Positions 32,960 through 35,900 of a stretch of 64,000 nt of DNA are shown here, in pieces. The DNA comes from Escherichia coli (lineage in GTDB: Bacteria; Pseudomonadota; Gammaproteobacteria; Enterobacterales; Enterobacteriaceae). The stretch's first letter is position 1, and each line of letters opens with the position of its first letter. Where the stretch lies: NCBI RefSeq assembly GCF_041248615.1, contig NZ_CP158426.1; one strand, written 5' to 3'. Made by a program: the position numbers.

Positions 32960-35900
32960 GTTTACGCCGCATCCGGCGGTTATGCGCTGATGCCTGATGC
33001 GGCGCGGGCGCGTCTTATCATGCCTGGAAGTCTGCGCCCGAATCGTAGGCCGCCTCCGCTATATTAACTGGCATTGGCAAATTACTCGTCACTACCTTTA
33101 TTCATGTTTTTTTGGTCTTCATCCGGATAATGTTTTTTTAGATATTCCAGGACGTTTTTATTGACCTTGTGTTGCGTATACACCCACCCTTTCCAGTAAT
33201 CAGGCTGGTCCAGGTAAACTTCTGGCGGAATGGTGAAATCAGAAAGCGTTAACCATTCGGCTAACAGATCGGGGTTTCGTTTCTGGATTAACTGCAACAG
33301 CATAATCAGTGACATAGCTGAGGCAGGAGCCGTACTATCGCCACTTAAATATTTCCACACTGTTGACCGGTTCGAACGAAAAAGGATCGGTAGCAATGCC
33401 CGGTCCAGATTCATTTCATTAAAAATCTTCTCAAATTCATTCATTTAAATTTTCCTGCCTGGCGTAAACCTCTTAAAAATTGAGATTTATCAAAGAAACG
33501 CATTTTAGCACACATCAGGAACCGGTTCACGTTTAGTCCAGAAACAGAATTTATTTCGCTTATCAAAACAAGTCTTTACTCTTTTTTACATTGAAAGAGC
33601 ACAAAATGATTTTCGATTTTATTTATATAAGAAACATTTTTTGTTTCTTATTGGTTGTGTTTACGCTTACACCAGACAAAAATGCGCTTTACATCACACA
33701 AATGGCGGCGTAGATTTCGATTAAATTGCAACGCAGTTTATTTCTTAAAACAATATTATTTGTTTCTTATAGAAACATTAATGCGACTTATTTTGAACAA
33801 GAGAAAATGAATGAAAACTGTAAACGTAGCTTTACTGGCACTCATAATTTCAGCAACATCCAGCCCTGTTGTTTTAGCTGGTGATACCATTGAAGCGGCG
33901 GCAACAGAGCTTTCAGCCATTAACTCTGGCATGTCGCAATCGGAGATTGAGCAGAAGATTACCCGCTTTTTAGAACGCACAGACAACAGCCCCGCTGCGT
34001 ATACCTATTTGACTGAACATCACTACATCCCTTCTGAAACACCTGATACCACTCAGACTCCCACTGTCCAGACAGATCCTGACGCAGTACAAAAAACCGT
34101 TGCCGCTACAGGTGATGTACAGACAACCGCCCGTTATCAGAGCATGATCAACGCCCGACAGTCTGCGGTAACTGATGCCCAGCAAACGCAAATTACAGAG
34201 CAACAGGCGCAGATCGTAGCCACACAAAAAACGCTCGCCGCGACTGGAGATACGCAAAATACTGCGCATTATCAGGAGATGATTAATGCCAGACTGGCGG
34301 CTCAAAATGAGGCTAATCAGCGCACTACCACGGAACAAGGGCAGAAAATGAATGCACTGACAACCGATGTGGCAGCACAACAGCAAAAAGAAAGGGCTCA
34401 ATACGATAAACAAATGCAAAGTCTGGCGCAGAAGTCTGTCCAGGCACATGAGCAAATTGAAAGTCTGAGACAAGATTCCGCACAAACGCAGCAACAGTTA
34501 ACCAACACGCAAAAACGGGTCGCAGATAACAGCCAACAAATTAACACGCTCAATAACCATTTCGATTCTCTGAAAAACGAAGTTGAGGACAATCGTAAAG
34601 AAGCCAATGCGGGAACTGCATCTGCCATCGCTATCGCCTCACAACCACAGGTGAAAACCGGTGACTTGATGATGGTGTCAGCGGGAGCGGGAACGTACAA
34701 CGGTGAATCTGCGGTGTCTGTAGGAACATCTTTTAATGCCGGAACGCATACGGTACTTAAAGCAGGTATTTCTGCGGATACACAATCTGATTTCGGTGCG
34801 GGTGTCGGCGTGGGATATTCGTTCTAATTTTAACAGCAATTTCTTATTCGCAATTTTCCGTACATTATTTAAGGTTAACAATGATGAATAGCTCCATTAA
34901 ATCGTTTTCCCTGCTGGCGGTTATATTACTGGCTGGCTGTAGTTCACCCACTTCCCGCATCGCAGATTGCCAGGCGCAGGGCGTCAGCCATGACACCTGT
35001 TATCTCGCAGAACAACAGCGTCAGGCGGCTATTTTAAGTGCATCAGAAGCGCAGGCATTTAAAAATGCAGAAGCCGCACAACATGCCCAGGCCGCTAAAA
35101 AATCTATTTATAAAGGATTTGGCATGACCTTTAGAATGAGCAGTAAGAACTTTGCTTATCTCAATGATTCATTATGTGCAATTGATGAAGACAATAAAGA
35201 TGCCACTGTTTATCAGTCAGGTCTTTATAACGTCATTGTTTATCATCACACAGGAAAAGTCGCCTTAATGAAGGAAGGTCAATTTGTGGGTTATTTAAAA
35301 TGAAGGAGCAAAGGAAAATACCCCTGACGCATATTATGATTATCGGTGCGTTTATTTTTGCCTTCTTGCAAGTAGTATTATTAGCCTCCCTGGTTCACGC
35401 TGTGAATGTTAACAACGAAATCCAGGAAGGCTTATTTCAGTCGGGGCGCATTATGGTAGAAAGTTTGCAGCATATTCTTTCGGTGCAAACGGGGATTAAC
35501 TGATTTTCACCCCGCCCGATGATGACAGCAGCCGGAGAGATTTTCGATAATCGGGCAGTCGGCGCTGTCATCGCCAGGGCAGGCATTCGCCAGCGCCAAC
35601 AGCTGGTTGCGCATGGATTGCAGCTCCTCAATGTGCCGTTCGATCTCCGCTACCTTCTCCAGCGTGCGCCGTTTTACATCGGCACTGTGACGCTGCGGAT
35701 CGTTAAACAGATTCACCAGCTCGCCGCTCTCTTCCAGGTTAAAGCCCACCTGGCGCGCCTGGCGCAGTAAGGTCAGTTCGTTGAGATGCTGCTGCGTGTA
35801 GGTTCGATAACCATTTTCGCTGCGCATCGGCGGCGTCACCAGCCCCTTCTCTTCATAGAAGCGAATGGCTTTGCTGGTCAGGCCGGTAATTTTTGCTACA

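Follow-up and report, generated by a model that had tools for sequence, protein, structure and literature searches.

GmrA of O-island 29 in Escherichia coli as a probable headless trimeric autotransporter with conserved partner genes

Trimeric autotransporter adhesins (TAAs; type Vc) such as YadA, Hia and AtaA combine a Sec signal peptide with a helical stalk and a C-terminal membrane anchor, which consists of one helix and four strands and ends in an aromatic residue. Some of them are encoded next to a gene for an exported lipoprotein or periplasmic protein; the known partners are SadB, which accompanies SadA in Salmonella (PMC3953254), and TpgA, which accompanies AtaA in Acinetobacter (PMC12523085). 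In a 2026 preprint, the neighbours of TAAs with a YadA head were searched, no new helpers were found and further ones were judged unlikely. Here, we describe a locus in a stretch of 64,000 nucleotides from Escherichia coli (assembly GCF_041248615.1, contig NZ_CP158426.1; below, the window), in which a protein of 338 amino acids (aa) with the same overall features is encoded at 33811-34827 on the plus strand. This interval corresponds to O-island 29 (OI-29) of pathogenic E. coli, with an adjoining copy of the insertion sequence (IS) IS1397, and the 338-aa protein is GmrA, which has been published as a transcription factor of flagellar genes.

In contrast to the YadA, Hia and AtaA type, the 338-aa protein lacks the Pfam domains for a YadA head, neck or stalk, and its passenger consists only of a three-helix N-terminal domain, a linker and a helix. 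Headless proteins of this kind lay outside the sample of the 2026 preprint. Like SadA-SadB and AtaA-TpgA, the autotransporter of the window has an adjacent lipoprotein gene, and this pairing is kept across species. We consider it likely, with a probability of roughly 0.8, that the 338-aa protein is a headless short trimeric autotransporter with dedicated partners, encoded by a module in OI-29, and that any effect on motility is indirect. That it is an autotransporter at all is very probable.

The locus had already been catalogued as OI-29, and the family assignment is present in genome annotation. A preliminary description of the window, made by reading its sequence, had proposed the autotransporter without recognizing the interval as the published OI-29 with gmrA. 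New are the identity of the published ‘transcription factor’ GmrA with the product of the 338-aa autotransporter gene, the conserved regulator-autotransporter-lipoprotein module, and a set of relatives bearing a helix-turn-helix (HTH) segment. Roughly one in four complete E. coli genomes encodes the protein, O157:H7 and numerous extraintestinal lineages among them. Since it is predicted to be exposed on the surface, it is a candidate adhesin or antigen, a role in which it is not known to have been studied. The sole functional paper calls GmrA a transcription factor, a designation taken up by five or more later reviews and papers. If the interpretation proposed here is true, that annotation is misleading and the link with flagella needs another explanation, possibly a crosstalk between adhesin and motility.

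Anchor, stalk and signal peptide of the 338-aa protein

The only significant Pfam match of the 338-aa protein is YadA_anchor (PF03895; E=6.1e-12), which extends over model positions 1-60 of 60 and over residues 279-338 (34645-34824, plus strand); the O157 allele gives the same match with E=2.6e-11. The preliminary description had proposed the architecture of a short trimeric autotransporter and had named the lack of such a match, together with the lack of a predicted 12-strand trimeric barrel, as grounds for rejection; the full-length match removes the first of the two. As had been read, the protein ends in ...GVGVGYSF, an aromatic end that agrees with the beta-signal recognized by the beta-barrel assembly machinery (BAM), and the C-terminal residue of module homologues in other genera is W, F or Y. 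A phmmer search of the PDB retrieved the anchors of AtaA (2.5e-7), Hia (1.5e-6 to 1.4e-5) and YadA (0.011), and the NCBIfam models matched were the C-termini of EmaA and Vomp. The PGAP label is ‘YadA family autotransporter adhesin’, and the source databases use either ‘adhesin’ or this same label. Altogether, 1,509 library proteins match the 338-aa protein at E<=0.001. Among the 150 matches listed, the alignment ends at, or a few residues from, the C-terminus of the matched protein in nearly all cases, the exceptions being short N-terminal or internal fragments, and the homologues that are full-length or longer are all C-terminally anchored YadA-family proteins.

The predicted structure points in the same direction. 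In an AlphaFold2 monomer model, built from 65 homologues and with a mean pLDDT of 78.6, the signal peptide is unstructured and is followed by an N-terminal domain (residues 24-72; 33880-34026, plus strand) with helices at 27-34, 43-56 and 61-69 and a pLDDT of 93-95. A disordered Pro/Thr linker (residues 77-97) leads to the alpha-helical stalk (residues 93-276; 34087-34638, plus strand), which is modelled as the helices 93-145 and 148-276 with a pLDDT of about 80-97. The anchor, with strands at 287-296, 299-309, 315-325 and 332-337 after the helix that ends at 276, displays the topology of one helix and four strands per chain. When the model was compared with the PDB by Foldseek, the top four matches were membrane anchors (Hia 3emo, 2gr7 and 2gr8, and YadA 2lme), each with a probability of 1.00 and with target TM-scores of 0.60-0.68.

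The signal peptide, the glutamine richness and the internal duplication of the preliminary description also hold. A Sec signal peptide is predicted for residues 1-23 (33811-33879, plus strand; MKTVNVALLALIISATSSPVVLA, followed by GD), with Lys2, a hydrophobic core at 6-24 and a maximal KD19 value of 2.05; it was called by hydropathy and inspection of the cleavage site. The predicted cleavage lies between VLA and GD, and a site of the form AFA or VLA before GD is kept among the alleles. The mature protein of 315 residues comprises the three-helix domain, the Pro/Thr linker, a helix rich in Gln, Thr and Ala, and the anchor; glutamine makes up 12.1% of the 338-aa protein, in line with its description as glutamine-rich. 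The internal duplication that had been noticed by eye is a diverged one (34084-34338, plus strand): residues 92-131 (34084-34203) align with residues 137-176 (34219-34338) with a BLOSUM62 local score of 119, compared to 32.5 +/- 5.9 and a maximum of 61 for shuffled sequences. It is visible at the protein level only; no DNA tandem repeats were found in the gene by TRF. On inspection, residues 198-275 of the stalk show an unbroken heptad register at the a and d positions, with Asn at d (N240 and N261).

For the N-terminal domain, presumably the distal tip of a fibre, there is no Pfam family. It is 40% identical to the N-terminus of a 633-aa TAA of Pseudocitrobacter faecalis. A hidden Markov model (HMM) of this domain had no valid match at the N-terminus of any module autotransporter, and its sole match, in Escherichia whittamii, aligned at residues 347-363.

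Within Escherichia, the autotransporter alleles range from 338 to 586 aa. In ten alleles that were compared, the last 60 residues are 93.6% identical and the signal peptide with the N-terminal domain is on average 76% identical, while the middle part spans 166 to 407 residues, depending on how often the same cassettes are repeated; longer alleles have additional copies of the unit that is duplicated in the 338-aa protein. An anchor and a tip that are both conserved, connected by a stalk of variable length, fit an exposed surface fibre. By analogy with the family, the 23-residue signal peptide would take the protein through Sec, and the C-terminal helix and four strands would be inserted by BAM. 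Three copies of the anchor may then form a 12-stranded outer-membrane barrel, as the homology to the Hia and YadA anchors suggests, and three helical stalks of about 180 residues (roughly 25 nm) would thread the barrel and display the three-helix domain at the tip. The length of the stalk would vary by gain and loss of repeat cassettes, with the anchor being kept.

The Eib proteins are short E. coli TAAs dominated by coiled coil, as the 338-aa protein appears to be, and the PHROG ‘adhesin’ family phrog_17426 matches residues 97-338 (E=1.3e-21). Both observations would suit an Eib-like immunoglobulin-binding or serum-resistance protein, and the preliminary description had pointed to a relation of this kind. 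No specific relation was found, however. No EibD chain was among the PDB sequence matches at E<=1, though other TAA anchors were matched, and no similarity to the EibD passenger was detectable by this search; the phage-encoded relatives retrieved by tblastn are 33-42% identical over the C-terminal part only. Furthermore, Eib genes are described as prophage-borne, whereas the gene of the window belongs to an island of the chromosome, flanked by ybbJ and cueR, in which the ORF listing and genome comparison revealed no phage genes. An Eib-like function is therefore very improbable.

Putative partner genes and conservation of the module

Besides the autotransporter gene, the island contains three genes. 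The three open reading frames (ORFs) of the preliminary description, at 33811-34827, 34881-35303 and 35300-35503, are all present in the ORF listing, and the two that follow the autotransporter gene prove to be real, conserved genes; the fourth, a divergent one at 33082-33444, had not been described. A 140-aa lipoprotein with the lipobox LLAGC is encoded at 34881-35303 on the plus strand. Its predicted model has a pLDDT of 72 overall and of 85-91 in a beta domain. It belongs to no Pfam, NCBIfam, PHROG, PADLOC or PDB sequence family, a Foldseek search of the AFDB returned only unannotated ‘Lipoprotein’ entries from Enterobacterales, and no homology was found to SadB or to the BamE and OmpA domains of TpgA. 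The resemblance to MliC, PliC and ACP, small eight-stranded beta-barrel lipoproteins that act as lysozyme inhibitors, is one of fold only. Membership of the MliC/PliC group was rejected: a profile comparison with E. coli MliC aligned nothing but the lipobox, and there is no Pfam MliC match.

The 67-aa single-pass membrane protein (35300-35503, plus strand) has one strongly hydrophobic segment (KD19 2.65). The start of its gene overlaps the lipoprotein stop codon by 4 nt (ATGA), and it appears to be translationally coupled to the lipoprotein gene. The O157 and A16 versions share 98.5-100% of their residues with it and a homologue in P. faecalis shares 43%. The protein recurs in E. whittamii and Pseudocitrobacter, where its gene overlaps that of the lipoprotein in the same way, and no Pfam, NCBIfam, PHROG or PADLOC family was found for it. 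The divergent 120-aa protein (33082-33444, minus strand) is 96.7% identical to its O157 orthologue and has no Pfam, NCBIfam, PHROG or PADLOC match at a significant level. Weak HTH matches were obtained with MqsA_antitoxin (E=0.012-0.12), Xre-like-HTH (0.047) and HigA2 (0.55) over residues ~3-63, and it is possibly an XRE-like regulator.

Conservation was assessed by scanning a single genome of each species with the alignment of the lipoprotein, which gave 70 loci; HMMs for the anchor, for the family of the 120-aa protein and for the 67-aa protein were then run on the six-frame ORFs of these loci. A YadA-anchor ORF is located directly upstream of the lipoprotein gene, on the same strand, in 25 of the 70 loci; the gap is about 550 bp or less in 24 of these and 1.9 kb in the remaining one. 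Nowhere else in the flanks of the 70 lipoprotein loci was an anchor ORF found. For full-length lipoprotein matches, the proportion with an autotransporter rises to 17 of 32. A divergently oriented homologue of the 120-aa protein is present in 15 loci, in 13 cases upstream of the TAA gene and in two (L036 and L048) upstream of a lipoprotein gene that has no detectable anchor ORF. Matches to the 67-aa protein are confined to Escherichia and Pseudocitrobacter.

Among the genera represented in these loci are Escherichia, Pseudocitrobacter, Rahnella, Yersinia, Hafnia, Ewingella, Enterobacter, Lelliottia and Citrobacter. All four genes, in unchanged order, are found in P. faecalis, beside a large serine recombinase of 628 aa; its distance of ~1.3 kb from the module suggests carriage on a mobile element. 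Other Pseudocitrobacter genomes have these four genes between qmcA and fetA, and in Enterobacter asburiae the autotransporter-lipoprotein pair occurs alone; in both genera the module is at other chromosomal sites than in E. coli. The gene is part of a conserved module that also comprises a divergent 120-aa protein, possibly an XRE-like regulator, and a lipoprotein directly downstream, to which a translationally coupled small membrane protein is added in Escherichia and Pseudocitrobacter. From synteny only, we infer that the lipoprotein may assist or anchor the autotransporter. It could thus be a dedicated envelope partner of headless autotransporters, acting in biogenesis, anchoring or signalling, and its conservation downstream of such proteins in many Enterobacterales makes it a candidate for a new autotransporter partner.

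Some of these loci differ in detail. The P. faecalis locus (L004, 1090-6707) carries two tandem autotransporter genes, for 633 and 588 aa, and the 588-aa product ends in ...SLSVGW and has no precomputed Pfam anchor match. At two Pseudocitrobacter loci (L009 and L010, 3700-6340) the site between qmcA and fetA replaces that between ybbJ and cueR. A partial module in Symbiopectobacterium (L008) is situated near Band_7/NfeD genes, and no YadA anchor was detected there. The neighbourhood of Band_7/NfeD type recurs, while the exact insertion site of the module differs.

In four Rahnella species and in Ewingella americana, the autotransporter ORF of the module starts with ~40 conserved residues (…RNTQIVNAYIAGNHNKSELARYFGVSASTIRRVL), which form an HTH-like segment in frame ahead of the hydrophobic signal segment and its AxA site (L025 from 4734, L027 from 3750, L028 from 4204, L031 from 5028 and L039 from 4136). 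The segment matches an IS256-variant transposase HTH in NCBIfam (E=3.9e-5), the CD3324 family (3e-4) and Pfam HTH_28 (0.0039). Synonymous codon differences exceed non-synonymous ones in 9 of 10 pairs, a sign of purifying selection, which indicates that the segment is translated. In their layout, these autotransporters are reminiscent of a ToxR-like topology joined to a YadA-anchor protein, and a literature search found no precedent for an HTH segment ahead of a YadA-anchor autotransporter. The E. coli protein has no such extension, because a TGA directly precedes its ATG. DNA-binding elements therefore appear to be repeatedly associated with the module, and a regulatory coupling is possible.

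Identity with GmrA and the link to motility

The 338-aa ORF is gmrA, as follows from the mapping of the published primers. The two arms used for the deletion of gmrA map to 33772-33810 and 34828-34865, directly on either side of the ORF, the expression primer ATGAAAACTGTAAACGTAGCTTTA corresponds to 33811-33834 (MKTVNVAL) and the FLAG-fusion primer to 34806-34824 (…GVGYSF). A deletion arm for z0640 maps to 33444-33482; z0640 is the 120-aa ORF and z0638 the lipoprotein gene. The OI-29 gmrA of EDL933/O157 is the same gene as the window ORF: the O157 protein also has 338 aa and is 95.3% identical over all 338 residues, and all four island ORFs are at least 95% identical between the window strain and O157.

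The hallmarks of the sequence, which are those of an outer-membrane surface protein, and the literature, in which GmrA is a cytoplasmic transcription factor, disagree. Several observations weigh against a headless autotransporter with dedicated partners and only an indirect effect on motility. On the structural side, the Foldseek E-values are 3e-3 to 0.1, the trimeric barrel is based on homology with the structure model being a monomer, and a Fourier test for hydrophobic periodicity of the stalk was not significant, as 63 of 500 shuffled sequences reached the same value. Moreover, 45 of the 70 lipoprotein homologues have no adjacent autotransporter, so that the pairing is frequent but not obligatory. 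On the genetic side, deletion of gmrA in EDL933 lowers motility, flagella and the mRNA levels of fliA and fliC (Yang et al. 2018, PMC5826968), motility and fliC mRNA also drop when the orthologue is deleted in eight other strains, the defect is complemented by gmrA alone, and deletion of z0638 or z0640 gives no motility phenotype (PMC5826968). Electrophoretic mobility shift assays (EMSA) showed shifts that are specific for the fliA promoter, with competition, and chromatin immunoprecipitation with quantitative PCR (ChIP-qPCR) gave a 7.75-fold enrichment (PMC5826968). Finally, deletion of OI-29 causes no adherence defect on HeLa or Caco-2 cells (PMC5826968), which leaves an adhesin function unproven.

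Taken at face value, the published reading is that GmrA is a cytoplasmic activator which binds the fliA promoter, with the YadA-anchor similarity being irrelevant or reflecting moonlighting. It draws on the genetics, complementation, EMSA and ChIP-qPCR just mentioned and on the epistasis of gmrA with fliA (PMC5826968), and the Rahnella and Ewingella relatives demonstrate that DNA-binding elements can be attached to such proteins. The E. coli protein, however, is without that extension, and neither the window allele nor the O157 allele has a significant DNA-binding domain in Pfam or NCBIfam. The sole family named for DNA binding, TMF_DNA_bd, matches the two alleles with E=0.079 and 0.16 inside the putative coiled coil; it may correspond to the ‘putative DNA-binding domain’ that the authors obtained from CDD. 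The protein is acidic (isoelectric point 4.93, net charge -12) and has no basic segment. A signal peptide and a full-length anchor domain predict export instead of a cytoplasmic location, a stalk with length polymorphism is typical of surface proteins, and the full-length or longer homologues are without exception C-terminally anchored. A tag before a signal peptide or after the terminal Phe of such a protein should block normal export by Sec or insertion by BAM. In the published constructs, His6 preceded the signal peptide and 3xFLAG followed the terminal Phe (PMC5826968), and from these positions it seems that the binding assays probably used mislocalised protein. The Discussion of the same paper allows that the regulation may be indirect (PMC5826968). 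Most likely, then, activation of fliA by DNA binding is not the primary mechanism, and the published reading as a whole is very improbable. An indirect effect from the envelope on the flagella is more likely to underlie the motility phenotype, if this is real.

It could be imagined that both sides are right, with the protein a genuine autotransporter and the motility effect real. The module would then be an envelope device by which flagellar gene expression responds to whether the fibre is displayed or engaged. This would reconcile the sequence evidence with the published genetics. It would also accommodate the putative regulator gene that is kept beside the autotransporter in 13 species-level loci, as well as the HTH-like segments before the signal peptide that are under purifying selection in five species. 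The three genes of OI-29 drop together upon contact with host cells (Table S3, PMC5826968), which also fits such a device. On the other hand, motility is unchanged when z0638 or z0640 is deleted, Pfam and NCBIfam searches recognized no signalling domain in any module protein, the HTH matches of the 120-aa protein are weak (E no better than 0.01), and no mechanism is known by which a fibre in the outer membrane would act on fliA while flhDC stays unchanged. We hold this explanation to be rather unlikely. Equally tentative is its extended form, in which the OI-29 module would be a so far unrecognised envelope device, composed of a headless autotransporter and a dedicated lipoprotein, with export or display coupled to transcription. 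As parts of the same, rather doubtful proposal, the lipoprotein would represent a third family of TAA partners after SadB and TpgA, and the coupling would proceed via the 120-aa HTH-like protein, or via the fused HTH in the Rahnella and Ewingella relatives. If true, it would explain why deletion of a gene for an outer-membrane protein abolishes flagella in many E. coli pathotypes.

Island boundaries, distribution and surroundings

The island proper consists of the four genes described above and has a low GC content (0.31-0.48) relative to its flanks in the composition profile. In the window, qmcA (30089-31006) and ybbJ (31003-31461) precede it, and cueR (35507-35914, minus strand) is located on its far side. 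In K-12 MG1655, the abutting ends of cueR and ybbJ lie at 514400 and 514401, with 0 bp between them; the 4,045 bp that separate the end of ybbJ at 31461 from cueR at 35507 in the window are therefore interposed DNA. The distance of about 4 kb given in the preliminary description is thus correct, but 1,432 bp of it are an IS1397 copy (31528-32959, plus strand) that interrupts a REP-like palindrome located between ybbJ and the island. The element is absent from strain NZ_OW967178, the island of which is otherwise 100% identical to that of the window, and for this reason the island proper is only ~2.6 kb long. Comparison of the junctions revealed a 1,432-bp insert with a 4-bp overlap, terminal inverted repeats of the IS3 type (TGAACTG.ACCCCAAA) and the REP-like palindrome as target. 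The transposase matches transpos_IS3 of NCBIfam (E=3e-89), and the PGAP label is ‘IS3-like element IS1397 family transposase’. Judged by transposase, inverted repeats and target, the element at 31528-32959 is assigned to IS1397 of the IS3 family, outside the island proper.

Of 5,426 complete E. coli genomes, 1,416 carry the island, invariably on the chromosome, and in 1,364 of these at least 80% of the island query is covered. A low GC content, the adjoining IS in the window strain and disrupted long alleles in some strains, such as A16, could be taken as signs that the island is a decaying remnant of a horizontally acquired cassette with no current function. Such decay is hard to reconcile with this wide distribution, the near identity of the four ORFs to those of O157, the transcription in EDL933 with 20-96 reads per kilobase per million (RPKM; PMC5826968) and the conservation of the module across several genera, and it is extremely improbable. 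An anti-phage defence role was rejected as well, as PADLOC returned only coiled-coil noise (SMC-, JetC- and DndD-like models).

The divergent intergenic region (33445-33810) is AT-rich, with a GC content of about 0.31-0.40, and presumably contains the promoter and regulatory region. Two tandem units of 22 bp (TTTATTTCTTAAAAAAACATTA; 33737-33780), which match each other by 77% according to TRF, lie ~30-75 bp upstream of the autotransporter start codon and are possibly a binding site for a regulator. A promoter scan gave promoter-like sites at chance level only, and a terminator scan gave one weak terminator-like hairpin, inside the 3' end of the autotransporter gene. A scan against Rfam yielded nothing apart from a sub-threshold match to naRNA4, a nucleoid-associated RNA derived from REP sequences, at 32950-33024 (27.4 bits versus a gathering score of 59.5); its position is that of the REP-like sequence targeted by IS1397. 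The latter element has matches in 3,496 of the 5,426 genomes, with a near-full-length copy in 1,707 and up to 40 or more places per genome.

Beyond cueR follows a type I secretion pair of HlyD and ABC type (35911-39245 and onward). The HlyD gene occurs in 961 genomes, compared to 1,416 for OI-29, so that the two islands flanking cueR are not strictly co-inherited, and a strict linkage was ruled out on these counts. For the giant adhesin gene siiEA, a frameshift is annotated in the strain that has an island identical to that of the window. In E. coli A16 (L003, 2016-6190), an extra gene for a 407-aa hypothetical protein is located between cueR and the gene for the small membrane protein, and the long autotransporter allele is annotated without its N-terminal part, which leaves an unannotated gap at 5088-6190; this allele is probably disrupted.

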